Shown one piece after another: positions 2,351 through 20,921 of a stretch of DNA of 27,768 bases. The stretch comes from Burkholderiaceae bacterium. GTDB taxonomy: Bacteria > Pseudomonadota > Gammaproteobacteria > Burkholderiales > Burkholderiaceae_C. A program made the position numbers and the translations under genes. The notes under the pieces were generated by a model that did not search any database, had not been told where the DNA came from, and saw only the letters and a list, made by a program, of their open reading frames with translations. The stretch spans positions 1 through 27,768 of the forward strand of contig DATDES010000166.1 in NCBI GenBank assembly GCA_036522975.1, written 5' to 3'. Each line of letters begins with the position of its first letter. Position 1 is the stretch's first letter.

Positions 2351-2381
2351 TGTGTCAATCGCAGCCAAAGGAGTCAACACC

Positions 2382-3002
2382 ATGAACCTGAATGCCCTCA
2401 CGCCCTTGATGTTCGGCCTGTCGCTGCTGGGGGGCGCGGCCCTGGCCGCCAGTACCGCCAGCGTGGGCCAGGCAGCGCCCGCCTTCAGCGTCAGCGACGC
2501 CAACGGCAAACCCGTATCGCTGGCCGACTTCAAAGGCAAAACGGTGGTCCTCGAATGGGTCAACCCGGAGTGCCCGTATGTGCGCAAGCATTACGACAGC
2601 GCCAACATGCAGGCGACCCAGAAGGCGGCCACGACCCAAGGTGTGGTCTGGTTGTCGGTGAACTCGACCCACGCCAGCCACTACGATTTCAAGAAGCCGG
2701 CCGAGATGCAGGCCTGGACGCAGAAGCAAGGCGCCGCGCCGACCGCCACGCTGATGGACGGCGATGGCAAGATCGGCCGCGCCTACGGTGCACGGACCAC
2801 GCCGCACATGTACGTCATCGATGCCCGAGGCACCCTGGTCTATGCCGGCGGCATCGACGACAAGCCGAGTTCCAACCCGGGCGATGTGAAGACGGCGAAG
2901 AACCTGGTCACGGCGGCACTGACCGATGTGCTGGCCGGCAAGGCCGTCGCGCAGCCTGTGACACGACCATACGGCTGCTCGGTCAAGTATTCGGGTAGTT
3001 GA
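2382..3002 (+). CDS. Exported redoxin (AhpC/TSA, thioredoxin-fold), likely DsbD partner
   Basis: AAGGAG RBS at 2368-2373 before ATG 2382; signal peptide; GKTVVLEWVNPECPYV, GARTTPHMYVID and C-terminal YGCSVKY. Confidence 0.85.
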   Translation: MNLNALTPLMFGLSLLGGAALAASTASVGQAAPAFSVSDANGKPVSLADFKGKTVVLEWVNPECPYVRKHYDSANMQATQKAATTQGVVWLSVNSTHASHYDFKKPAEMQAWTQKQGAAPTATLMDGDGKIGRAYGARTTPHMYVIDARGTLVYAGGIDDKPSSNPGDVKTAKNLVTAALTDVLAGKAVAQPVTRPYGCSVKYSGS

Positions 3003-3088
3003 CCCACCCCCGAAGCGGCTTCGCCGCGCCCCCTCAAGGGGGCAACGCCAGTGGCCCGGCAGAGCCGGTTCCACGGCGCTCGCTGGGA
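3000..3088. repeat. Multi-hairpin palindromic intergenic element (copy 1) between convergent redoxin and glpD
   Basis: TGAC..ACCCCC start, GCGGC-TTC-GCCGC (3015-3027), GCCCCC-TCAA-GGGGGC (3028-3043), long imperfect stem 3046-3078; same layout as 9872-9957. Confidence 0.7.
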
Positions 3089-3098
3089 AATGCTGTCT

Positions 3099-4706
3099 CT
3101 ACGGCAGTTGTTGGTATTGGGTCGCCAAAGTCTCGAACGACACGCGAGAAGCCTCGGCATCGAAGCCCGCGCCGAGTTCATCGGCCAGGATCGCGGCCAC
3201 GGGCGTGGCCTGGCGCGCGGCTTCGGCGGCGTCGAGAAAGAGCAGGCGTGACCGTCGGGCCAGTACGTCCTCGACGCTGAACGCCATCTCCTGGCGCGCG
3301 GCGAACCGCACCATCGCCTCGCTCAGGCCGCCCTGCCCTGATTCCGCATCGCGCCACAGCCAGCGGCTCGCGCCGGGCAGGCTGCGCACGACGGCGGCCT
3401 CGTCGCCATACAGGTGTTCTCCCGGCGCAGTCGTGATCGAGACGCTGGCTCTCGCGGGCGCCCCCACGAGCGGCAGATGCACCGTGACGCCGCCGGCGCG
3501 GCGCGGCAGCAGGCGACGGTCGAAGCAGCGCTCGAGCACGTCTTCGGCCATCGCGCGGTAGGTGGTCCACTTGCCGCCGGTGACGGTGACCAGGCCCGAA
3601 CGGCCGACCAGCACGGTGTGCTCGCGCGAGATCTGTTTGGTGTCCTCGCTGTCGTCGCCGCTCGGCTTCACCAGCGGACGCAGGCCGACCCACACCGAGC
3701 GCACATCGGCGCGCGTCGGCGACTTCGACAGGTAGCGCGCCGACTCGCGCAGGATGAACTGCACCTCCTCGGCGAACGGTGTCGGCTCGAACACGACGTC
3801 GTCGCGCGGCGTGTCGGTGGTGCCCAGGATTGTCTTGCCCAGCCACGGCACGGCGAAGAGCACGCGGCCGTCCTCGGTCTTTGGCACCAACAGCGCATGC
3901 GAACCGGGCATGAATGCCCGGTCGACCACCAGGTGCACCCCCTGGCTCGGCGCGACGATGCCGGGCTTTGCGGGCGCACCGGCCTCGCGGTCCATGTTAC
4001 GCAGGTCGTCGACCCAGACCCCGGTGGCATTGATCACGCACCGGGCGGCAATGCGCAGCCCGGCACCCCCGATCGCGTCCTGTGCGACAACGCCTGTGAC
4101 CTTGCCGCCGTCGCGCCGCAGCGCGGTGACCGGGCAGTGGTTGAGCACGACGGCGCCCCTGGCCGCCGCAGTGCGGGCCAGGGCCAGGGCTAGGCGCGCG
4201 TCGTCGAACTGGCCGTCCCAGTACTTCACGCCGCCCGACAAGCCGCGGGCCTGCACTGTCGGCAGCAGTTCCCTGGTGCGGGTAGCCGAGAGGAACTCAG
4301 TCGCGCCGAGGCCGCGCGACCCGGCCAGCGCGTCATACATCTTCAGGCCGACGCCGTAGAACGGCGCTTCCCAGAAATGGTAGGCCGGCATCACGAAGGC
4401 CAGCGGCTGCGCCAGGTGCGGCGCGTTGGCTAGCAGGGTGGCACGCTCGTGCAAGGCCTCCCGTACCAGCGACACATTGCCCTGCGCCAGGTAGCGCACC
4501 CCGCCATGCACCAGTTTCGTCGCGCGCGAGCTGGTGCCTTTGGCGAAATCGTCGGCCTCGAGCAGCACGACCGAGAAACCGCGCGCCGCCGCGTCGAGCG
4601 CGACGCCGCAGCCAGTGGCGCCGCCACCGATCACGGCGAGGTCGAACCCGCCCGCGTCCTGCGCCGCCACGAGCGCCTCCGCGCGCGCCGATGCAGCGAG
4701 CGTCAT
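3099..4706 (-). CDS. glpD: FAD-dependent glycerol-3-phosphate dehydrogenase/oxidase
   Basis: DLAVIGGGATG FAD motif, GTSSRATKLVHGGVRYL, DGQFDDARL, WVGLRPL, ISREH, GGKWTTYR. Confidence 0.92.
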   Translation of the reverse strand: MTLAASARAEALVAAQDAGGFDLAVIGGGATGCGVALDAAARGFSVVLLEADDFAKGTSSRATKLVHGGVRYLAQGNVSLVREALHERATLLANAPHLAQPLAFVMPAYHFWEAPFYGVGLKMYDALAGSRGLGATEFLSATRTRELLPTVQARGLSGGVKYWDGQFDDARLALALARTAAARGAVVLNHCPVTALRRDGGKVTGVVAQDAIGGAGLRIAARCVINATGVWVDDLRNMDREAGAPAKPGIVAPSQGVHLVVDRAFMPGSHALLVPKTEDGRVLFAVPWLGKTILGTTDTPRDDVVFEPTPFAEEVQFILRESARYLSKSPTRADVRSVWVGLRPLVKPSGDDSEDTKQISREHTVLVGRSGLVTVTGGKWTTYRAMAEDVLERCFDRRLLPRRAGGVTVHLPLVGAPARASVSITTAPGEHLYGDEAAVVRSLPGASRWLWRDAESGQGGLSEAMVRFAARQEMAFSVEDVLARRSRLLFLDAAEAARQATPVAAILADELGAGFDAEASRVSFETLATQYQQLP

Positions 4707-5269
4707 GTTGTCACCTCCTCGCCCGCCAACAGGGCGAGCTTGTTCATCGTCGCCCAGTTGCGCGTCGTGGCCTGCTCACCAACCACCTTGGCGAACGCCT
4801 GGCTGACGGGGCTGTCGAGCACACCGCTCGCGCACCACAGGTAGGCCGCGTGCGGGACCAGGGCCAGGCCGTCGGGCGCCCAGTCACGCGCACTCAGGTG
4901 TTCGAGCACCCGCCTGTCGAGGCTGGGTGCGAGGATCGCCAGCATCAGCCTGGCGTCATCGTCGGCCAGCGCCCGCAGCGGGTGCGCGGCCAAGAGTTCG
5001 GCCAGGGTGTCGGCGGCCAGCACGAAGACCCGCGCATGGATGCCGAGCTTCTTGTGCAGGGCGGCCTCGATCGCCGACGCCAGGGCTGCCGCTGTGGCAC
5101 GCGGGAGCGCACCGAACACTGCATTGCCGCTGTTGAGCAGGGTCCGCACGTCGGTGTAGCCCAGGCTCTCGAGCAGGCTTCGCAGGTCGGCCATCGCGAT
5201 GCGCTTGGCGCGGCCGACATTGACGCCGCGCAGCAGCGCGATCCAGGTCGGGCGCGGACGACGGGCCAT
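4703..5269 (-). CDS. DUF1697 family protein
   Basis: IALLRGVNVG...MADLR..LESLGYTDVRTLLNSGNAVF signature; ATGA overlap with glpD. Confidence 0.85.
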   Translation of the reverse strand: MARRPRPTWIALLRGVNVGRAKRIAMADLRSLLESLGYTDVRTLLNSGNAVFGALPRATAAALASAIEAALHKKLGIHARVFVLAADTLAELLAAHPLRALADDDARLMLAILAPSLDRRVLEHLSARDWAPDGLALVPHAAYLWCASGVLDSPVSQAFAKVVGEQATTRNWATMNKLALLAGEEVTT

Positions 5270-5281
5270 CGGTGCAGGGCC

Positions 5282-6064
5282 TCAGCTGATCACCGACTGC
5301 TGTGCAATGCCACCGTCGACCAGCACATGCTGGCCCGTCATGCCGTCGCTGTCGTCGGCGGCCAGGAAGAGCGTGGCGCGCGCGACATGGCTCGGGTCGA
5401 GCCTGATCTTCAGGCATTGCGCGTCGAGGAACTCCTTGTCCGCCGCCGGGTCGCGGTGCAAGGTGGTCTGGCGGTCGGTGACGATGGCGCCAGGCACCAG
5501 CGCATTGACGCGGATGTTGCGGGCACCGAGTTCGCGCGCCAGGGTACGCGTCAGGCCGAGGATGCCGGCCTTGGCTGTCGTGTAGCCGACCAGGTTGGGC
5601 CGGCCACGCATCCAGCTCACCGAGCCCATGTTGATCACGCTGCCGCCGCCGGCCTTCGCCATGCCGGGCGTGACGGCCTGGATGGCGAAGAAGTAGTGCT
5701 TCAGGTTGAGCGCGAGGCGGTCGTCCCAGAACGCACTCGTCACCTCTTCCATCTTGTGGCGGTCATCGCGGCCGGCGTTGTTGACGAGCACGCGCACCGG
5801 CCCGAGCTCGCTCTCGACGCGGCCGAGCAAGGCCTGGTAGGCGGTCACGTCGCGCACGTCGCAGGCGCCGTACCAGGGCACCGGGCCGCCGGCCGCGAGC
5901 ACCTCGTCGATCAGGGCATTGCCGCCTTCGGGCTTGGTTCCGCAGAACGCAACCTTCGCGCCCTGTGCCGCGAACGCGCGCACGAGTTCGGCGCCGATGC
6001 CCGAACTGCCGCCGGAGACGAAGACCACACGGTCCGTCAGCGACGCGTAGCGGGTGTAGCTCAT
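5282..6064 (-). CDS. sedA: SDR oxidoreductase, probable sulfoquinovose 1-dehydrogenase
   Basis: SGGSSGIG, NNAGRDDRH, YTTAK; the INMGSVSWMRGRP and LVPGAIxTxRQ segments match my recollection of Pseudomonas putida SQ1 SQ dehydrogenase rather than Caulobacter XylB (SWHLGL); cluster context. Confidence 0.75.
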   Translation of the reverse strand: MSYTRYASLTDRVVFVSGGSSGIGAELVRAFAAQGAKVAFCGTKPEGGNALIDEVLAAGGPVPWYGACDVRDVTAYQALLGRVESELGPVRVLVNNAGRDDRHKMEEVTSAFWDDRLALNLKHYFFAIQAVTPGMAKAGGGSVINMGSVSWMRGRPNLVGYTTAKAGILGLTRTLARELGARNIRVNALVPGAIVTDRQTTLHRDPAADKEFLDAQCLKIRLDPSHVARATLFLAADDSDGMTGQHVLVDGGIAQQSVIS

Positions 6065-6075
6065 GACGGGGCTCC

Positions 6076-6978
6076 CTACAGTTGGGCGATGTGGGCCGGC
6101 AGCCCCGCCACATCGACCCGCAGTTGCAGCACGCGGCCGGCAAGCGGCTCGCGCGCCAATTCGTCGGCCGGGCGCTTCTCGCGCGCGGTCGTGATGTACA
6201 GGGTCTTGAGGTCGGGGCCGCCGAAGCAGGGCATCGTCGGGCAGCGCACCGGCAGCGGTATCTCGCGGCTGAGCGTGCCGTCGGCGCTGAAGCGTAGCAC
6301 GCGCGCGCCCTCGAACATCGCCACCCAGTAGCCACCCTCGACATCGACGGCAGCGCCGTCGGGGCGGCCGCCATAGCGGGCGAGATCCTGCGCCGGGGTC
6401 TTGGGTGGAAACTGCAGGAATGCGCGGCGACGCGACAGGCTGCCGTCGCCGACGTCGAAGTCCAGCGCGTCGACGCGGTGGGCCTTGGTGTCAGCCCAGT
6501 ACATCGTGCGCGCATCGGGGCTCCAGGCCAGGCCGTTGCTGACCGTGATGTCGCCGGCCATCTTGTCGAGCCGGCCCGCGCCGAAGCGGTAGAGCGCGGC
6601 ACGCGGCGGATCGCGCGGCTCGTAGATCGTCCCGACCCAGAAGCGACCCTTCGGGTCGGCCTTGCCGTCGTTGAAGCGCTCATGCGCCGGGTCGTAGGGT
6701 GCCTCGGCAAGGGGGTACGACTTGCCGGACCCGGGGTCGAAGCGCACGAGCCCGTCACGCAGGGCCAGCAGCAGACCACCGTCGTTCAGCGGTGCGCAAC
6801 TGCCAACGTCGGTGTCGAAGGACCACTCGCGGTGCGTGCCGCTGGCCGGATCGAAGCGGTTCAGTGTGTGGCCCGGGATGTCGCACCAGTAGAGCAACTG
6901 CTCGCCCGGGTGCCACAGCGGCGACTCGCCGAGCAGGCTGGGTGGAACGCCAGGCAAGGATTCGATTCGCGCGCTCAC
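6076..6978 (-). CDS. sedB: SMP-30/gluconolactonase family, probable 6-deoxy-6-sulfogluconolactonase
   Basis: LGESPLWH, RFNDGKADPKGRFWVG, SNGLAWSPD, PDGAAVD, PTMPCFGG; GTG start at 6978 overlaps the epimerase TGA (GTGA). Family is certain, substrate is from context. Confidence 0.75.
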   Translation of the reverse strand: MSARIESLPGVPPSLLGESPLWHPGEQLLYWCDIPGHTLNRFDPASGTHREWSFDTDVGSCAPLNDGGLLLALRDGLVRFDPGSGKSYPLAEAPYDPAHERFNDGKADPKGRFWVGTIYEPRDPPRAALYRFGAGRLDKMAGDITVSNGLAWSPDARTMYWADTKAHRVDALDFDVGDGSLSRRRAFLQFPPKTPAQDLARYGGRPDGAAVDVEGGYWVAMFEGARVLRFSADGTLSREIPLPVRCPTMPCFGGPDLKTLYITTAREKRPADELAREPLAGRVLQLRVDVAGLPAHIAQL

Positions 6979-7844
6979 GCTTTGGCGATGTCGATCGTCA
7001 TCCAGGCTTCGAGCGTCTCGCCTGCGGGCAGGCCGACCAAGCCATGCGCGGCCGGGTCGGCCATCTGGATCGCATTGCTGACATGGCTGACCGGCTCGAC
7101 GCAGAAGTAGTCGCGCGACGGCGGCGTGAAGACCACCAGGTAGGGCAGCGATGACGTGAGCTTGAGGGCCAGCTTCTCGTCGCGCAGGTTGGCCGCGCCG
7201 CGCCAGCCTTCGAAGCAGTTGTCGAAGTCGAGGTGGCGCACCTCGCCGTCGATGCTGCCCTGCTGGACACGCCGGGTGGGCAGTTGCGTGCCCGGGTCGG
7301 ATTCCCATCGCTGCGTGCACTCGATGTGCAGGCGGCTGCGAGAGCGCTTCGGGAAATACGGGTGCCAGCCCAGGCCCACCGGCTGGGTGCGCGCGTCGAT
7401 ATTGGTCACCGACAGGCGCAGTGTCAGCGCCTGGTCGCTCAGCTCGATGCTCTGGGTTGCGTCGAAGTTGAAGGGCCAGTGCTCGTTGGCCAGGTGCGTG
7501 GTGGCCAGCTCGGCCTGGGTGGCATTGCTGCCGGCGACGCGCCAGGGGGTCTGCCACACCGTGCCGTGCAGCGAGTGCGGGTTGCCGGCATCGAAGTTCG
7601 GCGCGGTCGTGTGGTCACGGCCGAGCCAGCGGAAATGGCGATAACCGATGCGATTCGAATAGGGCGCCAGCGGGAAGCAGGCCGACGGCCGCGAGGCCAG
7701 CAGTTCGGCCGGCTCGCAGCTGCGCAGGATCGGTGTCGTGTCGTGCCAGAAACCGGCGATGGCGCCGCCCAGGTCGGGGCGCAAGGCCAGGCGCAGCGCG
7801 CCGGCACGAAGTTCGATGGCTGGGGTGCTAGGGACTGCGGTCAT
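6975..7844 (-). CDS. Aldose 1-epimerase family, probable SQ mutarotase
   Basis: FPLAPYSNRI, HSLHG, GLGWHPYF, YFCVEPVSH; GGAG RBS before ATG 7844. Confidence 0.8.
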   Translation of the reverse strand: MTAVPSTPAIELRAGALRLALRPDLGGAIAGFWHDTTPILRSCEPAELLASRPSACFPLAPYSNRIGYRHFRWLGRDHTTAPNFDAGNPHSLHGTVWQTPWRVAGSNATQAELATTHLANEHWPFNFDATQSIELSDQALTLRLSVTNIDARTQPVGLGWHPYFPKRSRSRLHIECTQRWESDPGTQLPTRRVQQGSIDGEVRHLDFDNCFEGWRGAANLRDEKLALKLTSSLPYLVVFTPPSRDYFCVEPVSHVSNAIQMADPAAHGLVGLPAGETLEAWMTIDIAKA

Positions 7845-7913
7845 GGGGCTCCGGGGCGGGTTCGTTGGCGCGCCGGCGATCGCGCGCGTGCGCATCGTAA
7901 GCGCTGCAGCGCC

Positions 7914-9038
7914 TCACCAACAGGCCGGCAGGACTTCGGCAAGCGCCACCACGCGGCCTTCGTCGATGCTCCTGTGCGCAGCCAGGCCAGTGGCCACCGC
8001 CCGCAGGCCCTCGTCGAGCGGTATTTCCGCCGGCAGGCCGTTGCGCAGCGCGTGCGCGAACTTCTGGTGTTCGATGTAGCTCGCGCCGAAGTGCTGGCCC
8101 AGGTACTTGATGTTGGTGTCGCGGATCTGGCGCACGGCGACGCCCTTGGCGGTGCCGGACGGCTGGCCCCAGACCTCGCGCCGGCCCCAGTCCTCGCGGC
8201 GCCCGTAGCGCAACACGCCAGAGGGCAGCAGCGACTCGAGCTTGCCTTCGGCGCCGACGATGGTGACGTGCTCGTTGTCGACCGAGTTCTCCGCGAACAT
8301 GCACAAGTCCAGGCTCGCACGGGCTCCGCTGGGGTACTCGACGATCACGTAGGCACTGTCGAGGATGTCGGGCACTGTTTGACCATCGGGGCCGTCGTAG
8401 CTTTCGTCGAGGTGGTTGACGCGCTGGCCACCCGAGGCGAACACCCGCGCGGGCTTCTCCTTCAGGATGAAGTCCATCAGGTTGAAGTAGTGGCAGCACT
8501 TTTCGACCAGAGTGCCGCCGGTATTGGCATTGAAGCGGTTCCAGTCGCCGACCTTCGGGTAGAAGGGCTCACGGTGCTCGCGGATCGCCACCTGGTGCAG
8601 GCGGCCGACGCCGCCCTCGTGGGCGATGCGGATCATCTCGGCCACCGGCGGCATGTAGCGGTATTCCTGCGCCACCCAGACGATGCCCTTGCGACCTTTG
8701 GCGCGCTCGATCATCTCGACGCCGTCGGCCACGCGCGTGACAAGCGGCTTTTCGCACAGGATGTGCAGGTCGGTCGCCAGCGCGTCGCGCATCACCTCGA
8801 TGTGGGTGAAGTTCGGACTGGCGATCACGAGCGCGTCGCACAGGCCGCTCTTCAGCAGGTCCCTGTGGTTTTCAAAGAGCTGGGCCTTGCCGTCGAGCAG
8901 CGCCGCGGCAGCGTCCCGGCTGGGCAGCGCCGGGTCGGCGATCGCGGTGACCTTGGCACCACCCAAGGCGCGCAGGTTCTCGATGTGCTCGCGGCCCATG
9001 CTGCCGCAGCCGATGATGCCGTAACGAAGCTTGTTCAT
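7914..9038 (-). CDS. sqgA: Gfo/Idh/MocA-fold protein, probable NAD+-dependent sulfoquinovosidase (GH188)
   Basis: GIIGCGSMG and CEKPL; EYRYMPP, IREHREPFYPKV, WNRFNANTGGTLVEKCCH, LDLCMFAE and KYLGQHFGASY match recalled GH188 and plant homologues; located in an SQ cluster lacking a GH31 gene. Confidence 0.8.
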   Translation of the reverse strand: MNKLRYGIIGCGSMGREHIENLRALGGAKVTAIADPALPSRDAAAALLDGKAQLFENHRDLLKSGLCDALVIASPNFTHIEVMRDALATDLHILCEKPLVTRVADGVEMIERAKGRKGIVWVAQEYRYMPPVAEMIRIAHEGGVGRLHQVAIREHREPFYPKVGDWNRFNANTGGTLVEKCCHYFNLMDFILKEKPARVFASGGQRVNHLDESYDGPDGQTVPDILDSAYVIVEYPSGARASLDLCMFAENSVDNEHVTIVGAEGKLESLLPSGVLRYGRREDWGRREVWGQPSGTAKGVAVRQIRDTNIKYLGQHFGASYIEHQKFAHALRNGLPAEIPLDEGLRAVATGLAAHRSIDEGRVVALAEVLPACW

Positions 9039-9045
9039 GCGGGTC

Positions 9046-9876
9046 TCAACCTTTGAGGCCGCCCTGCGTCAAGCCACCGACCACGCGCTCCTGAAAGATC
9101 GCAATCAGCACGGCAATCGGCACGATGGCCACGATCAGGGCGGCCGAGATGATCGGCCAGGGAAAAGTGAACTCGCCCTGGTACAGCGTGATGCCGACCG
9201 GCAGGGTGCGCATCGACGCGCTCGAGTTCAAGGACAAGGCGAGCAGGAATTCGTCCCAGGCATTGACGAAGGCCAGGATGCCGGCCGTGAACACCCCCGG
9301 CGCGGCCAGCGGCACGACCACACGCCACAACGCACCCATGCGTGTGCAGCCATCGATCATCGCAGCGTTCTCGAGGTCCTTGGGGATGCTCTGGAAGAAG
9401 CTCACCAACACCAGGGTGCAGACCGGCAGGTTGAGCACGATGTAGGGCAGCACGAGCGCGGTATAGGTGTTGAGCAGCCCAAGCGCGCGCATGGTCTCGA
9501 AGATCGGCACCAGCAGCGTGACCAGCGGGAACATGCTCGATGCGACGATGCAGGTCAGGATCAGCTGCCGGTGCTTGAGGTTCAGGCGCGCGATCGCGTA
9601 GGCGGCCAGGGCCGAGACCAGCAGCGAGAAGACCGTCGCGCTCAGGGCCACCGCCAGGCTGTTGCCCAGGTACTTGAGCAGGGGCTGGTCGGTGAAGGCC
9701 TGGACGTAATTGGCCAAGGTCGGGTTGTGCGGCCAGTATGTGATGGGCTTGCTGACCAGCTCCGATTCGGTCTTCAGCGAGGTGAGCAGGATCCACACCG
9801 CGGGAAAGAAGCCGTTGATCACGACCAGGCCGGCCGCGATCAGGCGCAGCGACTTGGCATCCCAAAGGCTCCTCAT
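9046..9876 (-). CDS. Carbohydrate ABC transporter permease (MalG-like)
   Basis: Multiple TM helices; SIPKDLENAAMIDG EAA motif; FVNAWDEFL; LPVGI. Confidence 0.92.
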   Translation of the reverse strand: MRSLWDAKSLRLIAAGLVVINGFFPAVWILLTSLKTESELVSKPITYWPHNPTLANYVQAFTDQPLLKYLGNSLAVALSATVFSLLVSALAAYAIARLNLKHRQLILTCIVASSMFPLVTLLVPIFETMRALGLLNTYTALVLPYIVLNLPVCTLVLVSFFQSIPKDLENAAMIDGCTRMGALWRVVVPLAAPGVFTAGILAFVNAWDEFLLALSLNSSASMRTLPVGITLYQGEFTFPWPIISAALIVAIVPIAVLIAIFQERVVGGLTQGGLKG

Positions 9877-9957
9877 GACGACCCCCAAGACGCCTGCGGC
9901 GTCGGCCCCCCGAGGGGGCGCGTTTCGTCTCGAGGCGGCTCGGCGACGAAACTCATG
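9872..9957. repeat. 80-bp triple-hairpin element (copy 2) flanked by a CTCATG direct repeat
   Basis: CTCATG at 9872-9877 and 9952-9957; stems GACGCC-TGC-GGCGTC (9889-9903), GCCCCC-CGA-GGGGGC (9905-9919), GTTTCGTC...GACGAAAC (9922-9952). Confidence 0.8.
9873..9956 (-). other. 27-aa element-derived mini-ORF (MSFVAEPPRDETRPLGGPTPQASWGSS) bridging the two permeases
   Basis: Its ATG overlaps the upstream permease TGA (ATGA at 9956-9953) and its TGA overlaps the downstream permease ATG (ATGA at 9876-9873); translation is untested. Confidence 0.45.
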
Positions 9958-10855
9958 CGTTCTTCCCGATGCGCTTCAAGTAGAACCCGGTCACGAACAG
10001 CGAGAGCACGAACATGCACACCGCGAGCGTGCTGCCGTAACCGACGTCGAGGTAGTCGATCGTGGTCTTGTGGATCAGCATCGCCAGCGTCTCGGTGCTG
10101 TTGCCCGGGCCGCCCTTGGTCATCGTGTACGGGATGTCGAAGGTCTGCAGCGCGGTGATGGTGCGGAAGATCAGCGCGACGATGATCGACGGCATCAGCA
10201 TCGGGATCGTGATCTGCCAGAACTGCTGCCACTTCGACGCGCCGTCGACCTCGGCCGCCTCGTAGAGCGATTTCGGGATCATCTGCAGCCCTGCCAGCAG
10301 GATCAGGGCCATGAAGGAACTGGTCTTCCAGACGATCGTCAGGCAGATCGCCGCGAAGGCCCAGTTCGGCCGCAGCAGCCACATTGCCGGCTCGCTCGGC
10401 GCGGCCACCCGGCGCACCACGTCGTTGACGACACCGTACTCGGTGTGGAAGAACCACGCGAAGATCAGGCCGGCGAATGCCAGCGGCAGCGCCCAGGGCA
10501 GCAGGAGGGCCAGGCGCACCGGCCACTTGCGTTTGAACGGCAGGTTGGCCAGCATCGCCAGGCCCAGGCCGACGACCAGCGCGCCGGGCACGGTGATCAA
10601 GGTGATCAGCACCGTGTTCTTGGTGGCGTTCCAGAAGTCCGGGTCCTTGAGGACGAGCGCGTAGTTCTCGAAGCCGACGAACTTGAAGCCGCCGCCACCC
10701 GACAGGCGCAGGTCGTAGAAGCTGTTCCAGATCAGCTTGGCGATCGGATAGACGACGATCAGCGCCAGCAGCAGGAAGGCCGGCGCGAGCAGCATGACGC
10801 CGAGCGTCTTCTCGCTCGGGTCACGCAGTCGATCGACAGTGCTCGCGCCCGCCAT
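9953..10855 (-). CDS. Carbohydrate ABC transporter permease (MalF-like)
   Basis: LLLAPAFLLL, FVGFENY, LLLPWALP, IPKSLYEAAEVDGA EAA motif, TKGGPG. Confidence 0.92.
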   Translation of the reverse strand: MAGASTVDRLRDPSEKTLGVMLLAPAFLLLALIVVYPIAKLIWNSFYDLRLSGGGGFKFVGFENYALVLKDPDFWNATKNTVLITLITVPGALVVGLGLAMLANLPFKRKWPVRLALLLPWALPLAFAGLIFAWFFHTEYGVVNDVVRRVAAPSEPAMWLLRPNWAFAAICLTIVWKTSSFMALILLAGLQMIPKSLYEAAEVDGASKWQQFWQITIPMLMPSIIVALIFRTITALQTFDIPYTMTKGGPGNSTETLAMLIHKTTIDYLDVGYGSTLAVCMFVLSLFVTGFYLKRIGKNA

Positions 10856-10867
10856 GCCCGCCGCCGC

Positions 10868-12142
10868 TCAGCGCATCACTCGGGTCAGACGCGACTCGAT
10901 CTCGTTCACGCCCTCGGCCGGGGTCTTGGTGCGCGCCAGCACCGCGCTGGTCGTGGTGCGGATGATGTCGCTGACCTGACCGTAGTCCTTGCTCATCGGG
11001 CGGCTCTTGCCGGCAATGACGACATTGGCGGCGTCCTTGAACCAGGGAACCACCTTGGTCACGTCGGCATCGGTGTAGACGCCGGGGTAGGTCGCCAGCA
11101 GCGAGCCTTCGACGGCGAGGAACTTGCTCGACTCGGGGCTGGCCAGGTGCTTGACGAGGTTGGCCGCCGCCTGCTTGTTCTTGCTGAAGGCGCTGACCGC
11201 CCATTGCCAGCCGCCGACGCAAGTCGCGCTCTTGCCGCCGGTCATCGCCGGCAACGGCATCACGCCGACCTTGCCCTTGACCTGCGAATCGGCGTCGTCT
11301 TTGAAACGGTCCCAGGCGAAGCCCCAGTTGATCGCGAACACGACCTGGCCGGCCTTGAATTCGTTGACCGTGTCGGGGGTCTTGACCTCGGCGACATTCT
11401 TCTTGATCACGCCGGCGTCGACCATCGACAGCCACTGCGTCAGCCCCTTGGTTGCCGCACCCTTGTCGAGCGTCATCTTGCCGGCCGGGTCGTTGAAGTC
11501 CTTGCCCTGGCCCCAGTAGGGCAGCAGGAACGTGCAGACGGCGCCCTCGATCGGCGCGCCCTGGATCGACAGGCCTTGCAGGTTGGCATTGCTCTCGGCC
11601 TTCTGGATCTTGGCCGCCGCGGCCGTCAGTTCGTCCCAGGTCTTGGGCTCCGCGACGCCGTACTTGTCGAGCAGGTCCTTGCGGTAGTACATGAACATCG
11701 CATCGGCAAAGGCCGGCATCGCGGCGATCTTGCCGTCGACGACGTTCGACGTCGCATACACCGGCAGGTAGGGCTTCATCACGTCGGCCGGCTTGCCGAT
11801 GTAGGCATCGAGCGGCTCGAGCCAGCCCGCCCCGTAGTACTGCGCCGGGTTGACGATGTCGATCAGGTAGATGTCGATCGCCGGGTCCTTGGCGTTGAGC
11901 ACGGTGCTCAGGTACTGGCGCTGCAGCTCGCTGGTCGCGCCACCGGTCTCGATCTCGACCTTGACGTTGGGGTTCTTGGCCTGGTACTGGTCGAACAGCT
12001 TGCGCATCAGGTCCGGACGCTGGTTGGCGCCGCCGGAGAACACGCGCAGCGTGGTCTGCTGGGCGAAGGAGGTGACGCTGAATCCGACGCCGGCCAGGAA
12101 GGCGGCGAGGGTCAATGTCGTGAGGGATTGGCGGCGCTTCAT
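10868..12142 (-). CDS. smoF: ABC substrate-binding protein, SmoF-like SQ/SQ-glycerol binding protein
   Basis: Sec signal peptide, AAGGAG RBS; ETGGATSELQRQYLSTV, PAFADAMFMYYRKDLLDKYG, IEGAVCTFLLPYW, TCVGGW, SRP and ESRLTRVMR align with recalled Agrobacterium SmoF. Confidence 0.8.
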   Translation of the reverse strand: MKRRQSLTTLTLAAFLAGVGFSVTSFAQQTTLRVFSGGANQRPDLMRKLFDQYQAKNPNVKVEIETGGATSELQRQYLSTVLNAKDPAIDIYLIDIVNPAQYYGAGWLEPLDAYIGKPADVMKPYLPVYATSNVVDGKIAAMPAFADAMFMYYRKDLLDKYGVAEPKTWDELTAAAAKIQKAESNANLQGLSIQGAPIEGAVCTFLLPYWGQGKDFNDPAGKMTLDKGAATKGLTQWLSMVDAGVIKKNVAEVKTPDTVNEFKAGQVVFAINWGFAWDRFKDDADSQVKGKVGVMPLPAMTGGKSATCVGGWQWAVSAFSKNKQAAANLVKHLASPESSKFLAVEGSLLATYPGVYTDADVTKVVPWFKDAANVVIAGKSRPMSKDYGQVSDIIRTTTSAVLARTKTPAEGVNEIESRLTRVMR

Positions 12143-12185
12143 CGTTTGTCTCCTTGGGCTGGGGCTGGGACGGGAAACCCGGGTG

Positions 12186-13259
12186 TCAAAGGGCGGCGCC
12201 GCTGCCGGCGTCGAACAGGTGCAGGTGGCGCGGGTTCATGTGCACGGCCAGGCGCGTGCCGGGCGGGTCGCGAAACGCGGCGTTGCAGCGCGAGACCATC
12301 TCGGCCGCGCCGATCTTCAGCGACACCAGGGTCTCGGCGCCCAGGGGTTCGAGCAGCGAGACCTCGGCCGGCACGGCCAGGTCGCTCTCGCTCTGCCGGG
12401 CGAGCGTGATGTTCTCGGGCCGGATGCCGAACTTGAGCTTGGCCGCTCCGTTGGCGCGCGCCGCCAGCTCGGGCGGCAACGCGATCTCGGTCCCGCCGAG
12501 GTCGGCCCGCCCGCCCCGCAGCGCGCAGTCGGCCAGGTTCATCGGCGGCGCGCCGGTGAAGCCGGCGACGAACACCGCGGCCGGGTGGTTGTAGATGTTG
12601 TCGGGCGTGTCGTACTGCATCTTCCTGCCGGCCGACAGCACCGCAATGCGGTCGGCCATCGTCATCGCCTCGACCTGGTCGTGGGTGACGTAGATGATCG
12701 TCGCGCCCAGGCGCTGGTGCAGACGCTTGATCTCGCTCCTCATCTCGTGGCGCAGTTGGGCATCGAGGTTCGACAGCGGCTCGTCGAACAGGAAGACCTT
12801 GGGCTGGCGCACGATGGCGCGACCGATCGCCACGCGCTGGCGCTGCCCGCCCGACAGCGCGGCAGGCTTGCGCTCGAGCATGTGGTCGATCTTCAGCAGC
12901 TTGGCCGCGTCCATCACGCGGCGCTTGATTTCCGCCTCCTCGGTTCCGCGCAGGCGCAGGCCGAAGGCCATGTTGTCGTACAGGTTCTTGTGTGGGTACA
13001 GCGCATAGTCCTGGAACACCATCGCGATGTCGCGCGCGCGAGGCGGCAGGTCGTTGACGACCTTGCCGTCGATGCAGACGTCGCCGCCGGTGATCGTCTC
13101 CAGGCCGGCGATCATGCGCAGCAGGGTGCTCTTGCCACAGCCCGAGGGCCCGACGAAGACCACGAATTCGCCATGCTGGATCTGCAGGTCGATGCCGTGG
13201 ATGACTTGCGTCTTGCCGTCGTAGCTCTTGACGACGCCCTTGAGGTCGACCGCCGCCAT
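12186..13259 (-). CDS. Carbohydrate ABC transporter ATP-binding subunit (MalK/UgpC-like)
   Basis: GPSGCGKS Walker A, LSGGQRQR signature, FLFDEPLSNLD, YVTHDQ; ATG 13259 overlaps the aldolase TGA. Confidence 0.95.
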   Translation of the reverse strand: MAAVDLKGVVKSYDGKTQVIHGIDLQIQHGEFVVFVGPSGCGKSTLLRMIAGLETITGGDVCIDGKVVNDLPPRARDIAMVFQDYALYPHKNLYDNMAFGLRLRGTEEAEIKRRVMDAAKLLKIDHMLERKPAALSGGQRQRVAIGRAIVRQPKVFLFDEPLSNLDAQLRHEMRSEIKRLHQRLGATIIYVTHDQVEAMTMADRIAVLSAGRKMQYDTPDNIYNHPAAVFVAGFTGAPPMNLADCALRGGRADLGGTEIALPPELAARANGAAKLKFGIRPENITLARQSESDLAVPAEVSLLEPLGAETLVSLKIGAAEMVSRCNAAFRDPPGTRLAVHMNPRHLHLFDAGSGAAL

Positions 13260-14080
13260 CAGTAGGCTCCCGAACCGGTCTGCGTGCCGCCCGCCAAGGT
13301 GTGCACATGGGTTTCGCCGTCGGGCGTGGTGAGCGCTTTCACGGCCGCTTGTGCGCCGCGCATCAGCAGTCCCAGGTCGCTGCCGATGGCCACATAGTCG
13401 AAGCCCATCGCGCGGTACTGGACGACGAGCTCGGGCGTGCCGCCGACGGTGCCCACCGGCATGTCCACCGCCTTGCAGCGGCGCGCCGCGTCGGCCATCA
13501 CGCGCATCACATCGGGATGGGTGGTGTTGCCGGCGTGGCCGAGCGCGGCCGACAGATCGCCGGGGCCGAGGAAGAGGGAATCGACGCCCGGCACCGCGGC
13601 AATCGCTTCGAGTTGCGCCACCGCGGCCGGCGTCTCCAGTTGCAGCACGGCGCCGACGGTCTTGTTGGCCGTCTTGGCGTAATCGGGCACGGTGCCGAAC
13701 TTGGAGCCCCGGCTCATGCCGGCCAGGCCGCGATTGCCTTCGGGCGGGTAGCGCGTGGCGGCCACCGCGCGCCGGGCTTCGTCGGCGTTCTGCACGAAGG
13801 GAATCAACAGGGTGTGCGCGCCGGCATCGAGCACCCGCTTGATGCTGACGGTGTCGTTCCAGGGCACCCGCACGATCGGCACCATTTTCGTATTGCCGGC
13901 CGCCTGCAGCAGATGAATCACCTCCATCATGTCTAGCGGCGTGTGCTCCATGTCGATCACGCCCCACTGGAAACCGGCGTGGCCCATCGCCTCGGTGACG
14001 ATGGGGCTGGCAGCCATGATCCACGTGCCGAGCGGCGCGTGGGATCCGGCGGACTTGAGCAACTGGCGTAGCGGGTTCAT
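13259..14080 (-). CDS. sedD: HpcH/HpaI class II aldolase, probable 2-keto-3,6-dideoxy-6-sulfogluconate (KDSG) aldolase
   Basis: IDMEHTP, VRVPWND, KRVLDAGA, RYPPEGNRG, QLET, FLGPGDLS; GAGG RBS before ATG 14080. Substrate is from context. Confidence 0.75.
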   Translation of the reverse strand: MNPLRQLLKSAGSHAPLGTWIMAASPIVTEAMGHAGFQWGVIDMEHTPLDMMEVIHLLQAAGNTKMVPIVRVPWNDTVSIKRVLDAGAHTLLIPFVQNADEARRAVAATRYPPEGNRGLAGMSRGSKFGTVPDYAKTANKTVGAVLQLETPAAVAQLEAIAAVPGVDSLFLGPGDLSAALGHAGNTTHPDVMRVMADAARRCKAVDMPVGTVGGTPELVVQYRAMGFDYVAIGSDLGLLMRGAQAAVKALTTPDGETHVHTLAGGTQTGSGAY

Positions 14081-14095
14081 GACCGGGTTCCTCAA

Positions 14096-15838
14096 TCAAT
14101 AGATGACCGGCTCGGGTGTACTGGCCGCACCCTGCAGGAAGTCGAAGTCGCAGCCTTCGTGGGCCTGCGTCACGTGTTCGCGGTACAGGCGCACGAAGCC
14201 GCGGCTCTGAGGTGCGGCCGGCGCCCTCCACGCGGCGCGACGGCGCGCCAGTTCGCCGTCGGCAACATGCAGGTGGACGCGCCGGGCCTCGATGTCGATC
14301 TCGATCTCGTCGCCGCTGCGCACGCACGCCAGGGGCCCGCCGACCGCGCTCTCGGGGCTGACGTGGAGGATGCAGGTGCCGTAGTGGGTGCCGCTCATGC
14401 GCGCGTCTGAGATGCGCACCATGTCGCGCACCCCTAGCGCGAGCAGTTTCTTCGGGATCGGCAGGCCGCCCCATTCGGGCATGCCCGGGGCGCCGACCGG
14501 ACCGGCGTTGCGCAGGACGAGCACTGTGTTCTCGTCGCAGGCGAGGTTCGGGTCGGCACAGGCCCGGTTCATGTCGGCCGGGTCATCGAACACGAGCGCG
14601 GTGCCCCGGTGCTTGAAGAACTTCGGGCTGGCTGCACTGGCTTTCATTACCGCGCCCTCGGGTGCGAGGTTGCCGCGCAGCACGGCCAGCGCGCCACCGG
14701 GACTGACCGGCCGGTCGAGCGGGCGGATCACTTCGTCGTCGAGCACCGCCACGCCCTCCAGGTTATCGCCGAGGGTGCGGCCGTTGACGCAACGCTCGCC
14801 CAGCGACAGCTGCGCCCTGATCCGGGTCATCAGCGCCGGCAGGCCGCCGGCGTAGTGAAAGTCTTCCATCAGCCGGTCGCCGCTCGGGAACAGGTTGGCC
14901 AGAACCGGTACCTTGCGGCCGACGGCATCGAGGTCGTCGAGCGTGAGTTCGACGCCGGCGCGGCGCGCCATCGCGATGATGTGCACCGCGGCATTGGTCG
15001 AACCGCCCAGGGCCATTTGGACCGCTGCGGCGTTCAGGAACGCGCCGCGGGTCAGGATCGATTGCGGCGTCAAGTCGTCCCAGACCATCTGGACAACGCG
15101 CTCGCCGCAGGTGGTGGCCATGCGCACATGGCCGGCATCCATGGCCGGGATCGCGGTCGAGCCGGGCAGTGCCAGGCCGAGCGCTTCGACGATCGAGGTC
15201 ATCGTGCTCGCGGTGCCCATCGTGTTGCAGGTGCCCGGGCTGCGGGTCATGTGCGCTTCGAGTTCGATCCATTCGGCCTCGCTGACCTTGCCGGCCTGGT
15301 ACTCGTCCCAGAACAGGCGCGTGTGGGTGCCAGCGCCTACTTTGCGCTCGGCTTGTCCGGGCTTGAGGTAGCGGTCGTTCAGCATCGGCCCGGCCGCGCA
15401 GAAGATCGTCGGCAGGCCCATGCTGATCGCACCCATCAGGGTGCCCGGCGTGGTCTTGTCGCAGCCGGCGAGCAGCACGACCCCGTCGATCGGCAGCGAG
15501 CGCAACAGCTCCTCGACTTCCATCGCCAGGAAGTTGCGATAGAGCATCGTGGTCGGCTTCACCATCACCTCGCCCAGGCTCATCGCCGGCAGCTCAAACG
15601 GCAAGCCGCCGGCCATCAGCACCCCGCGCTTGACCGCTTCGGCGCGCTCGCGCAGGTGGGCGTGGCAGGGTGACAGCTCGCTCCAGGTGTTGACGATCGC
15701 AATGCACGGCTTTTCGAGCACATCCTCGCGCCGCAGGCCCATCTGCTGGGCGCGCTGGCGGTGCGCGAAGGCACGCATGTCACGCGCGGCAAACCAGCGC
15801 CGGCTGCGCAGATCGGCGAGCGTCTTCAGGCGGCTCAT
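14096..15838 (-). CDS. sedC: IlvD/Edd-family Fe-S dehydratase, probable 6-deoxy-6-sulfogluconate dehydratase
   Basis: NTWSELSPCH, GCDKTT, GTCNTMGTAST, GGSTN; RAFAHRQR, GEVMVKPTT, GAGTHT and RMSGTHYG match the recalled P. putida SQ1 SG dehydratase. Confidence 0.78.
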   Translation of the reverse strand: MSRLKTLADLRSRRWFAARDMRAFAHRQRAQQMGLRREDVLEKPCIAIVNTWSELSPCHAHLRERAEAVKRGVLMAGGLPFELPAMSLGEVMVKPTTMLYRNFLAMEVEELLRSLPIDGVVLLAGCDKTTPGTLMGAISMGLPTIFCAAGPMLNDRYLKPGQAERKVGAGTHTRLFWDEYQAGKVSEAEWIELEAHMTRSPGTCNTMGTASTMTSIVEALGLALPGSTAIPAMDAGHVRMATTCGERVVQMVWDDLTPQSILTRGAFLNAAAVQMALGGSTNAAVHIIAMARRAGVELTLDDLDAVGRKVPVLANLFPSGDRLMEDFHYAGGLPALMTRIRAQLSLGERCVNGRTLGDNLEGVAVLDDEVIRPLDRPVSPGGALAVLRGNLAPEGAVMKASAASPKFFKHRGTALVFDDPADMNRACADPNLACDENTVLVLRNAGPVGAPGMPEWGGLPIPKKLLALGVRDMVRISDARMSGTHYGTCILHVSPESAVGGPLACVRSGDEIEIDIEARRVHLHVADGELARRRAAWRAPAAPQSRGFVRLYREHVTQAHEGCDFDFLQGAASTPEPVIY

Positions 15839-15874
15839 CGGCAGGGGAGGGATTTCGAGGATCGCATCGGCTGG

Positions 15875-15888
15875 TGTTACCGCTAACA
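15875..15888. promoter_or_regulatory. Palindromic LacI/GntR-type operator TGTTA-CCGC-TAACA in the divergent promoter region
   Basis: Matches the ATGTTA-N4-TAACAT consensus of the LacI-family gluconate repressor GntR; 37 bp upstream of the dehydratase ATG and 41 bp upstream of the regulator ATG. Confidence 0.75.
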
Positions 15889-15929
15889 TTAATGGGTGAG
15901 CGACCTCGCTACCACCCGAGCAAACCCGA

Positions 15930-17021
15930 ATGCCCCCGTCGAATCCCTTGCCCGCCCGTGCCGCGCCACGTCAGCCACGCCGCGGTCACGGCCGAGCCAC
16001 CTTGGCCGACGTGGCCGCCGCCGCCGGCGTCACCGCGATCACCGTTTCGCGTTACCTGCGCGAGCCGCACCGCGTCGCGCCGGCCACCGCCAGCGCCATC
16101 GCCGCCGCTTTGCAGCAGACCGGCTACCTGCCCAACAAGCAGGCCGGCGTGCTGGCCAGCGCCGCCAAGGCAGCGCCGGGCGGCGCTCGGATGGTCGCGG
16201 CCCTGATCCCGAGCATCGCCAATTCGATCTTTGCCGAGACCGTGCAGGGTCTGGCCGATGCGCTGCAAGGATCAGGGTGTGAGTTGTTACTCGCTTCGAC
16301 GGGCTACTCGGTCGATCGCGAAGAGGAACAGTTGCGCGCGCTGCTTGGCTGGTTCCCGAGCGCCCTGGTGGTTACCGGCCGGCGCCACACGCCCGGCGCA
16401 CTGGCCCTGTTGCGCCAGGCGCGATCGCGCGGGACGCCGGTGATCGAGATCTGGGACCATCACCCCGAGCCTGGCGCGGAAAGCTTCACCCAAATCGGGT
16501 TCGACCACGAACAGATCGGCCGCGCGATGGCCGAGCACCTGATCCAGCGCGGGCACCGCTCCCTGGCCTATGTCGACAGCGGCGTGGCCGAGGACTTTCG
16601 GGCTCACGAACGCGGCGACGGCTTCCTGGCTGCCGCCAAGCGCCGTCGCATCCCGGCGCGGCGCTTGACGGCGCCGGCCGGCGAAGCCATCGAGGCCGGG
16701 CGCCTCGCCCTTGCCGGCCTGCTCGATCCAAAAGGCCGCCTGACCGTGCGTGCCGCCGCCTTCGCCAATGACCACCTGGCCTGCGGCGCGCTGCTCGAAG
16801 CGCGGCAGCGCGGCCTGGCGCTGCCGCAGGACCTGGCATTGCTGGGCTTCGGCGACTTCAGCCTCGGCCGCCAACTCGACCCACCACTGTCCACCGTGCA
16901 CACGCCGCGCTTCGAAATCGGCCAGGCGGCGGCGCGCGCGCTGCTGCAGGCCCTGCACAGCGGCCAGGCCGCCGCCGATCAACGCCTGCCCTGGACCCTG
17001 ATCGCCCGTGGCAGCAGCTGA
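15930..17021 (+). CDS. LacI-family transcriptional regulator (GntR/IdnR-like), probable repressor of the SQ operon
   Basis: HTH TLADVAAAAGVTAITVSRYL, GYLPNKQAGVLAS, IPSIANSIFAETVQG, PVIEIWD, LLGFGD, PPLSTV. Confidence 0.9.
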   Translation: MPPSNPLPARAAPRQPRRGHGRATLADVAAAAGVTAITVSRYLREPHRVAPATASAIAAALQQTGYLPNKQAGVLASAAKAAPGGARMVAALIPSIANSIFAETVQGLADALQGSGCELLLASTGYSVDREEEQLRALLGWFPSALVVTGRRHTPGALALLRQARSRGTPVIEIWDHHPEPGAESFTQIGFDHEQIGRAMAEHLIQRGHRSLAYVDSGVAEDFRAHERGDGFLAAAKRRRIPARRLTAPAGEAIEAGRLALAGLLDPKGRLTVRAAAFANDHLACGALLEARQRGLALPQDLALLGFGDFSLGRQLDPPLSTVHTPRFEIGQAAARALLQALHSGQAAADQRLPWTLIARGSS

Positions 17022-17637
17022 AGCCGTCGCCGCCGCGGGCACCGGCTTCGCCCTCGGCGCGACCCTGATCATCGCCATCGGCGCCCAGAACGCCTTCGTG
17101 CTGCGCCAGGGCCTGCGGCGCGAGCATGTCGGCACCGTCGTCGCCTTCTGCGCCGCTGCCGATGCGCTGCTGATGACCCTCGGCGTGCTCGGCGCCGGCC
17201 GCGCGCTGACCGCGGCCCCGCAACTGGCGCGCTGGATGGCCGCGGCCGGCGCCCTGTTCCTGCTGCTCTATGGCCTGCGGGCCCTGCACCGCGCGTGGCG
17301 CCCCGCGTTCCTCGTCGCCGCCAGCCGGGATGGCCGCATGACGCGACGGGCCGCACTGGCGCAGGCGGCCGCCTTCACCCTGCTCAACCCGCACGTTTAC
17401 CTCGACACGGTGATGCTGGTCGGCGCGGTCGGCGCGCAGCAGAGCGTAGCAGTGCGCCCGGCCTTCCTGGTCGGCGCCTGCGCGGCCAGTGCGCTGTGGT
17501 TCGGTGGCCTGGGCTACGGCGCGCGCTGGCTCGCACCCTGGTTCGCGCAGCCCGCGGCGTGGCGCTGGCTCGACACGGTGGTTGGCCTGACGATGTTGCT
17601 GCTCGCCGCCGTGCTGGCGCGACACGCGCTGGCCTGA
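17008..17637 (+). CDS. LysE/ArgO-family amino acid exporter
   Basis: IAIGAQNAFVLRQG, TLLNPHVYLDTV, hydrophobic helices; the only candidate start is a GTG inside the regulator 3' end. Confidence 0.85.
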   Translation: MAAAEAVAAAGTGFALGATLIIAIGAQNAFVLRQGLRREHVGTVVAFCAAADALLMTLGVLGAGRALTAAPQLARWMAAAGALFLLLYGLRALHRAWRPAFLVAASRDGRMTRRAALAQAAAFTLLNPHVYLDTVMLVGAVGAQQSVAVRPAFLVGACAASALWFGGLGYGARWLAPWFAQPAAWRWLDTVVGLTMLLLAAVLARHALA

Positions 17638-17640
17638 ACG

Positions 17641-20913: not shown

Positions 20914-20921
20914 CGCTGCGC

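Follow-up and report, generated by a model that had tools for sequence, protein, structure and literature searches.

A predicted operon for sulfoquinovose uptake and sulfo-Entner–Doudoroff breakdown beneath pentose-type annotations in a Burkholderiaceae genome

Introduction

Can a bacterial gene cluster that looks like a generic pentose pathway serve the breakdown of sulfoquinovose (SQ), the sugar of the sulfolipid head group? About 10 billion tonnes of SQ are produced every year, so that knowledge of its bacterial degraders in soil is relevant to the cycling of carbon and sulfur. The question is raised by one whole contig (C166; DATDES010000166.1) of a Burkholderiaceae metagenome-assembled genome (MAG; GCA_036522975.1), which we analyzed over its full length of 27,768 nucleotides and refer to as the window. 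The MAG comprises 1.97 Mb in 263 contigs with 67% G+C and, judged by marker genes, is 78% complete and 3% contaminated. An earlier note on this DNA had read a run of minus-strand genes as an operon of the sulfo-Entner–Doudoroff (sulfo-ED) pathway, which was reportedly described in Pseudomonas putida SQ1 by Felux et al. in 2015 and yields pyruvate and sulfolactaldehyde (SLA). Having compared sequences, structure models and related loci, we consider it very likely that the cluster is a LacI-controlled operon for the uptake of SQ-glycerol (SQGro) and free SQ and for their breakdown by the sulfo-ED pathway.

Results

Matches to characterized sulfoquinovose proteins

Five proteins of the cluster find their best matches among characterized SQ proteins, supporting the earlier view that a short-chain dehydrogenase/reductase (SDR), an SMP-30-family lactonase, an IlvD/Edd dehydratase and an HpcH aldolase form a sulfo-ED enzyme set for sulfolipid head groups. 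The closest solved structure to the SDR in the Protein Data Bank (PDB) is the sulfoquinovose 1-dehydrogenase of P. putida, PpSQDH (9gwu, E = 1.9e-80). PpSQDH uses the catalytic tetrad Asn119-Ser147-Tyr160-Lys164, contacts the sugar through Asp99, Arg101 and Gln198, and holds the sulfonate with Arg152, assisted by Arg154 via a water (PMC12133307). The window SDR is identical at the equivalents of all these residues. Its segment SWMRGRP (residues 150–156), previously quoted as SQ-type, proved to be the sulfonate pocket with both arginines of PpSQDH; both arginines are missing from 7wwx and 4lvu, which come next among its PDB relatives.

One position of the SDR departs from PpSQDH, in which Asp45, the acidic residue ending strand beta-2, confers NAD+ specificity (PMC12133307). 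Its equivalent in the window protein is Gly, followed by Thr and Lys (VAFCGTKPEGG, residues 38–48), leaving the position without the residue that marks NAD+ specificity. Most other Burkholderiales SDRs compared read CG(T/L)(K/R) here and three read NGTK or CGTQ, whereas the SDRs of clusters linked to the sulfoquinovosidase family GH31 retain the Asp in the form LD(I/V)D or similar. This pattern suggests a switch in cofactor preference among the Burkholderiales SDRs, toward NADP+ or dual cofactor use, and argues that the loss of Asp45 would bear on the cofactor and not count against SQ as the substrate.

The two sulfo-ED enzymes acting at the sugar acid were compared through structure models. 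The dehydratase, folded using 22 aligned homologues (pLDDT 81) and searched with Foldseek against Swiss-Prot models, has as its top structural match P0DOV7, the 6-deoxy-6-sulfogluconate (SG) dehydratase of P. putida, with 60% identity over the full length, compared with 49% to two characterized L-arabinonate dehydratases and 38% to the Caulobacter D-xylonate dehydratase. The aldolase, treated by the same procedure (pLDDT 90), is matched best by P0DOV8, the P. putida aldolase for 2-keto-3,6-dideoxy-6-sulfogluconate (KDSG), at 50% identity, with 31–43% to GarL, HpaI and RhmA; all identities for these two enzymes were read from predicted models aligned by structure. The dehydratase segments RAFAHRQR, GAGTHT and SGTHYG, also quoted earlier as SQ-type, are present and are invariant or nearly so across the dehydratase clade. 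A large protein search with the dehydratase returned only close relatives under generic names, and the enzyme of P. putida was not among them.

The Gfo/Idh/MocA protein is the putative glycosidase of the cluster. It matches the crystallized GH188 sulfoquinovosidases FlSqgA and ArSqgA (8qc2, 8qc3) at E values of about 1e-95, with the next family in the PDB search scoring 1.6e-23, and it shares their two-domain Gfo/Idh/MocA architecture. In ArSqgA, Lys107, Tyr136, Glu189, His193 and His321 are catalytic, and Arg166, Lys172 and a backbone amide of the same loop form the sulfonate triad (Kaur et al. 2023, PMC10755693). The window protein is identical at the equivalents of the five catalytic residues, in the motifs EKP (96–98), EYRY (125–128), EKCCH (179–183) and GQHFG (314–318), and its loop EHREPFYPK (from residue 154) is matched in the alignment by ArSqgA EHRFPFLHK, the Arg and Lys being kept at equal spacing. 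The GH188 motifs mentioned in the earlier note are borne out, with all catalytic and sulfonate residues retained. No GH31 gene was found in the MAG, which is incomplete (78%). The SqgA enzymes characterized in Arthrobacter, Flavobacterium and Cryobacterium stand in sulfo-Embden–Meyerhof–Parnas contexts, whereas the window protein is an uncharacterized Burkholderiales member.

Similarly, the binding protein had been described as SmoF-like, and Agrobacterium tumefaciens SmoF is its best solved relative (7nbz, E = 5.7e-135, 453 bits; next match 2e-58). SmoF surrounds the sulfonate with Gln12, Ser43, Gly166 and Thr220 and contacts the sugar through His13, Asp67, Asp113, Trp276 and Arg345; Gln12 and His13 touch free SQ only, not glycosides (PMC8940949). 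Seven of these nine ligand residues are kept (Ser43, Asp67, Asp113, Gly166, Thr220, Trp276 and Arg345), and the two changes are Gln12 to Asn and His13 to Gln. Conservation of the SmoF pocket was found in few Rhizobiales homologues only (PMC8940949); the window protein extends the SmoF-type pocket to Burkholderiales. SmoF serves the A. tumefaciens desulfonating monooxygenase (sulfo-SMO) pathway, whereas the window protein would serve a sulfoglycolytic one.

Related loci and regulation

A scan with the dehydratase, using one genome per species, returned more than 590 relatives, of which the best 80 (63–89% identity) were taken with 10-kb flanks; synteny was counted over the 39 loci in which the dehydratase homologue is flanked by 9 kb or more on each side. 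An SDR orthologue occurs in 34 of the 39, with SWxRGRP in 30 and SWMRGNP in four, and 35 encode a sulfoquinovosidase, either SqgA or GH31; just three have no SDR, SqgA or GH31. The aldolase gene adjoins the dehydratase gene in nearly all related loci. One dehydratase (L026, 80% identical) stands alone between glycogen-debranching and pseudouridine synthase genes and is uninformative on the substrate. More distant clusters from Shinella, Ensifer, Salinarimonas and Paraburkholderia rely on GH31, and a gene for a GabD-like aldehyde dehydrogenase adjoins them; the single GH31 scanned, from one Shinella locus, passes a YihQ-type model.

Most related loci belong to Burkholderiales, including MAGs labeled Rubrivivax, Methylibium, Aquincola, Polaromonas, Rhodoferax, Variovorax and Albidiferax as well as the isolates Roseateles agri R3-3, Piscinibacter caeni MQ-18, Piscinibacter defluvii SH-1, Pelomonas sp. 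KK5 and Rubrivivax albus ICH-3. DNA nearly identical to that of the window was found in soil and rhizosphere metagenomes of more than 10 studies, consistent with a diet of plant sulfolipid.

In 39 related loci, a LacI orthologue takes up the divergent position that the regulator gene has here. The 91 bp between the dehydratase and LacI starts of the window contain TGTTACCGCTAACA, the window's sole match to TGT[TA]ANCGNT[AT]ACA, and 37 of the 39 related loci have one copy of this pattern in the corresponding intergenic region. The site has the form of LacI/GalR operators and is a predicted operator, to which the LacI regulator would bind in a manner governed by an inducer.

Alternative substrates

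Several observations weigh against an SQ pathway, and some of them would fit a generic oxidative pentose or hexose pathway of the Weimberg/Dahms type (for L-arabinose, D-xylose or similar) with a disaccharide-type importer and an inositol-type dehydrogenase. The dehydratase passes the NCBIfam equivalog model for L-arabinonate dehydratase (NF009559; 894 bits against a cut-off of 882), and one public record gives a homologue this name. The best NCBIfam model for the SDR is D-xylose dehydrogenase (XylB), and the lactonase is closest among solved structures, which include no SGL lactonase, to 7plb (E = 9e-51), a non-SQ SMP-30 protein that we take to be the Caulobacter xylonolactonase. The dehydratase and aldolase identities derive from predicted models, and no RNA run holding the window stretch was found. 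Finally, the window encodes neither an SLA enzyme (GabD/SlaB-type dehydrogenase or YihU-type reductase) nor a TauE-type exporter, and no GabD-like protein is among the five aldehyde dehydrogenases of the MAG, a YihU-type reductase not having been searched for there.

The pentose-type labels lose their force on comparison, however. All five further homologues tried against NF009559 (L025, L076, L078, L081 and L089) pass it as well, and three of them lie in loci with GH31 and an SQDH-type SDR (Shinella, Salinarimonas and Paraburkholderia); because dehydratases beside these markers pass too, the model does not discriminate. The dehydratase is closer to the SG dehydratase than to either kind of pentonate dehydratase, and the SDR stays below the XylB cut-off (299 against 400) and carries the sulfonate arginine pair. 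The homology to SqgA and SmoF, sulfonate-binding residues included, has no role in a pentose route. The earlier note had named best matches and clades of pentose enzymes as one outcome that would speak against it; SDR, dehydratase and aldolase are all closest to the P. putida SQ enzymes. With closer SQ-enzyme matches, retained sulfonate residues and an undiscriminating label, we rejected the pentose pathway as exceedingly improbable. Another C6-sulfonated or anionic sugar handled by the same enzyme families, for example sulfofucose (6-deoxy-6-sulfogalactose) or a different sulfosugar glycoside, is also very unlikely. Paracoccus does have an ED-type pathway for sulfofucose, in which an SDR, an SMP-30 lactonase and an HpcH aldolase occur together with an ABC importer (PMC12421959), and sulfonate-binding residues alone do not fix the configuration at C4. 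Yet the dehydratase of that pathway belongs to the enolase superfamily (PF13378/PF02746), with no IlvD/Edd enzyme in that organism, whereas the window enzyme is an IlvD/Edd protein closest to the SQ enzyme; the sulfofucose pathway was rejected on this difference in family. In addition, residues that contact the equatorial C4 hydroxyl of SQ are kept (Glu189 in SqgA; Asp67 and Arg345 in SmoF), and YihQ-type GH31, the classical SQ marker, replaces SqgA in relatives.

Proposed pathway

For the SQ pathway, the binding protein, SqgA, SQ dehydrogenase, dehydratase and aldolase are assigned from the comparisons of sequence, structure models and synteny given above. The roles of the lactonase and the mutarotase, the ligand of the regulator and every catalytic activity as such are predicted from context. 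In the proposed sequence of events, the periplasmic SmoF-like protein would bind SQGro or SQ and deliver it to the ABC importer of two permeases and one ATPase. SqgA would then cleave the glycoside through a transient, NAD+-dependent oxidation at C3, releasing SQ and glycerol, and the mutarotase would equilibrate the SQ anomers. The SDR would oxidize SQ to sulfogluconolactone, the SMP-30 lactonase would open it to sulfogluconate, and the IlvD/Edd enzyme would dehydrate this to KDSG, from which the HpcH aldolase would form pyruvate and SLA. The glycerol would be phosphorylated by a kinase encoded elsewhere, and the operon's glycerol-3-phosphate dehydrogenase GlpD would oxidize the product to dihydroxyacetone phosphate. 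We predict that the divergent LacI protein represses the operon at TGTTACCGCTAACA until SQ or an intermediate releases it.

Context gives the lactonase a putative role as sulfogluconolactone lactonase and the aldose epimerase a putative role as SQ mutarotase; both proteins contain the catalytic motifs of their families. The catalytic His/His/Glu of the epimerase, read from the sequence at SLHG (108), GWHPYF (176) and CVEP (265), corresponds to the conserved triad described for HsSQM, the SQ mutarotase of Herbaspirillum seropedicae (PMC5902678). In roughly half of the related clusters whose synteny otherwise agrees, neither lactonase nor epimerase was detected, a patchiness that is consistent with steps that also proceed spontaneously.

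Organization of the locus

The cluster forms part of an unbroken series of twelve minus-strand genes at 3099–15838 with one divergent plus-strand gene (Table 1). All ten minus-strand genes listed in the earlier note and the divergent LacI gene were found as described, with gaps of -4 to 76 nt; from the dehydratase gene through the SDR gene, these are 0/15, -1, 43, 12, 76, 7, 18, -4 and 11 nt. The genes and their reading in that account stand, but its left border falls short of glpD and the absent final step of SLA oxidation or reduction went unmentioned. Since the DUF1697 gene starts 12 nt after the SDR gene and glpD overlaps it by 4 nt, the transcription unit probably extends left to 3099, 2.2 kb past the border given there (5282). 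The glpD gene directly follows the SDR gene in six relatives (L016, L017, L020, L028, L039 and L051), whereas no DUF1697 homologue was found in any of the 80 related loci. GlpD is therefore a conserved accessory of the operon for the glycerol aglycone, and the DUF1697 gene, seemingly inserted at this locus in recent times, is probably no part of the pathway.

Table 1. Predicted features of the sulfoquinovose cluster in the window
Feature	Position	Strand	Basis or remark
LacI-family transcriptional regulator, divergent from operon	15930..17021	+	Pfam LacI HTH and Peripla_BP_3/1
Predicted LacI operator TGTTACCGCTAACA	15875..15888		14-bp palindrome, CG centre
SG dehydratase, IlvD/Edd family	14096..15838	-	Pfam ILVD_EDD_N, ILV_EDD_C
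KDSG aldolase, HpcH/HpaI family	13259..14095	-	Pfam HpcH_HpaI; top match P0DOV8
ABC transporter ATPase, UgpC/MalK type with TOBE domain	12186..13259	-	Pfam ABC_tran, OB_MalK, TOBE_2
Periplasmic SQGro/SQ binding protein, SmoF-like	10868..12142	-	Best solved relative SmoF (7nbz)
ABC permease 1	9953..10855	-	Pfam BPD_transp_1; 75–95% identity in related clusters
ABC permease 2	9046..9876	-	Pfam BPD_transp_1; ATG 9876 picked by comparing relatives
NAD+-dependent sulfoquinovosidase SqgA (GH188), Gfo/Idh/MocA protein	7914..9038	-	Best solved relatives FlSqgA, ArSqgA
Aldose 1-epimerase, assigned SQ mutarotase	6975..7895	-	Pfam Aldose_epim; role from context
SMP-30/gluconolactonase-family lactonase, assigned sulfogluconolactone lactonase	6076..6978	-	Pfam SGL, 2.8e-82; role from context
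Sulfoquinovose 1-dehydrogenase, classical SDR	5282..6064	-	Best solved relative PpSQDH (9gwu)
DUF1697 protein	4703..5269	-	Pfam DUF1697; starts 12 nt after SDR
FAD-dependent glycerol-3-phosphate dehydrogenase GlpD	3099..4706	-	Pfam DAO and DAO_C; 4-nt overlap with DUF1697

Individual gene calls were refined by comparison. The dehydratase frame is open up to 15889, and homologue lengths of 578–580 amino acids favor the ATG at 15838. The start of the ABC ATPase gene overlaps the aldolase stop by 1 nt, and its product scores 481 bits with the UgpC subfamily model of NCBIfam, above the cut-off of 432. The GTG start of the lactonase gene overlaps the epimerase stop (GTGA). Scans of 2300–17700 returned no promoter-like site and eight terminator-like sites, compared with 7.1 expected by chance, a count that is uninformative at 67% G+C.

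The two permease genes are separated by a G+C-rich spacer of 76–77 nt (9877–9953) with three short hairpins, whose predicted fold is no better than that of shuffled sequence (z -0.97). The spacer is absent from most relatives, and the permease genes abut or overlap (GCATGA) in L012, L020 and L025. L011 carries the same insert in the same place (92% over 72 nt), and elsewhere in the MAG only the last 20–22 nt of the spacer recur (C88 and C58). Flanking the cluster, a 1141-amino-acid hybrid sensor histidine kinase is encoded at 17641–21066, adjoining LacI and LysE genes; the closest relatives (L010–L020 and L069) also have a histidine kinase in the corresponding flank.

Fate of sulfolactaldehyde

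Textbook sulfo-ED organisms excrete sulfolactate. The aldehyde dehydrogenases of the MAG read as a PuuC-like protein, ExaC, a phosphonoacetaldehyde dehydrogenase and two methylmalonate-semialdehyde dehydrogenase fragments, and two TauE-family genes lie on other contigs. Little can be read from the absence of a gene here, since the genomes of close relatives measure 4.2–4.4 Mb and the MAG 1.97 Mb. Close relatives encode, elsewhere in their genomes, homologues 60–61% identical to the aldehyde dehydrogenase of the Shinella cluster, which may be ordinary succinate-semialdehyde dehydrogenases.

Further clues come from genes for sulfolactate breakdown. Thirteen relatives have a homologue of SuyB (sulfolactate sulfo-lyase) in the locus of the sulfo-ED cluster itself, in most of them followed by genes for a 2-hydroxyacid dehydrogenase and an Ldh_2 protein. 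Among these thirteen loci, which include L021 (790-5283) and L069 (1625-5929), those examined in detail have suyAB within a few kb of the sulfo-ED cluster, along with genes for a GntR regulator, a D-2-hydroxyacid dehydrogenase and a ComC-like Ldh_2 protein. For the Ldh_2 protein, L-sulfolactate dehydrogenase ranks first among NCBIfam models, with a score below the cut-off, and no aldehyde dehydrogenase gene stands beside the suyAB/Ldh_2 module in the loci examined in detail. Across whole genomes, suyB was found in three of four relatives searched.

In the MAG, suyA and suyB lie at the very start of C120 (3–1005, L097), where the contig start cuts the genes; SuyB is 86% identical to that of a relative and is cut after residue 256. 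A ComC-like Ldh_2 gene lies at the very end of C54 (5785–6591, L090), its product 72% identical to that of a relative and cut at the N-terminus. Both probably belong to one module divided by an assembly gap, a module that implies an organism able to desulfonate sulfolactate.

Sulfoglycolysis and biomineralization together in one bacterium are unusual (Stewart et al. 2025), and that study likewise names no SLA-oxidizing enzyme. We tentatively propose, at somewhat less than even confidence, that this lineage mineralizes SQ-glycerol fully within one cell, excreting no sulfolactate, with an SQ dehydrogenase that uses NADP+ or both cofactors. The sulfo-ED enzymes would yield pyruvate and SLA, and an enzyme other than the GabD type would oxidize SLA to sulfolactate. 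The pair of ComC-like and 2-hydroxyacid dehydrogenases together with SuyAB would then release sulfite and a second pyruvate, while GlpD would capture the glycerol. This proposal draws on the binning of contigs into the MAG and on inference from it.

Discussion

The window cluster is the known sulfo-ED pathway in misannotated genes and no new pathway. It resembles that of P. putida SQ1 in bringing the four core enzyme families together, with a dehydratase at 60% and an aldolase at 50% identity and the SDR contacts kept. It differs in its GH188 instead of GH31 sulfoquinovosidase, its SmoF-type ABC uptake, the appended glpD, the lack of an SLA dehydrogenase or exporter in the cluster and the replacement of Asp45 by Gly in the SDR. 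To our knowledge, the P. putida SQ1 cluster has no ABC importer, and the cluster of Herbaspirillum seropedicae presumably relies on a GH31 sulfoquinovosidase. The H. seropedicae operon is likewise a betaproteobacterial sulfo-ED cluster with a His/His/Glu aldose-1-epimerase (PMC5902678).

The earlier note did not recognize this gene combination as described in the lineage, a point that does not hold. Betaproteobacterial sulfo-ED clusters have been published (the H. seropedicae operon, PMC5902678; Felux 2015 as cited in PMC12890257), as have GH188 genes within GH31-free sulfo-ED clusters (Kaur et al. 2023, PMC10755693). The supplementary list of the latter study contains 27 Burkholderiales mentions, among them Rubrivivax albus ENE75_02570, and we found a syntenic cluster in R. 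albus as well (L068). For the downstream steps, the nearest parallel is Paracoccus wurundjeri (PMC12421959), which combines ED-type sulfosugar cleavage with SuyAB and a ComC-like dehydrogenase in one organism and for which the SLA-oxidizing enzyme is not named either. Unlike there, the predicted substrate in the window is SQ and the dehydratase is of the IlvD/Edd type; the cluster and suyAB lie on different contigs of the MAG.

These findings have consequences for annotation. Automatic annotation via NF009559 will mislabel the SG dehydratase clade as L-arabinonate dehydratase, and the cluster as a whole is automatically annotated as pentose and inositol metabolism, so that surveys by name or by GH31 alone will undercount SQ degraders. 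Together, the data point to a full module for SQGro import and sulfo-ED breakdown in a widespread soil and rhizosphere lineage of Burkholderiales that has relatives in Rubrivivax, Roseateles, Piscinibacter, Polaromonas, Rhodoferax and Variovorax. Mineralization within one organism is suggested by sulfolactate lyase genes that these genomes also carry, in 13 relatives close to the cluster, and the SLA-oxidizing enzyme of the lineage is now approachable in cultured relatives.

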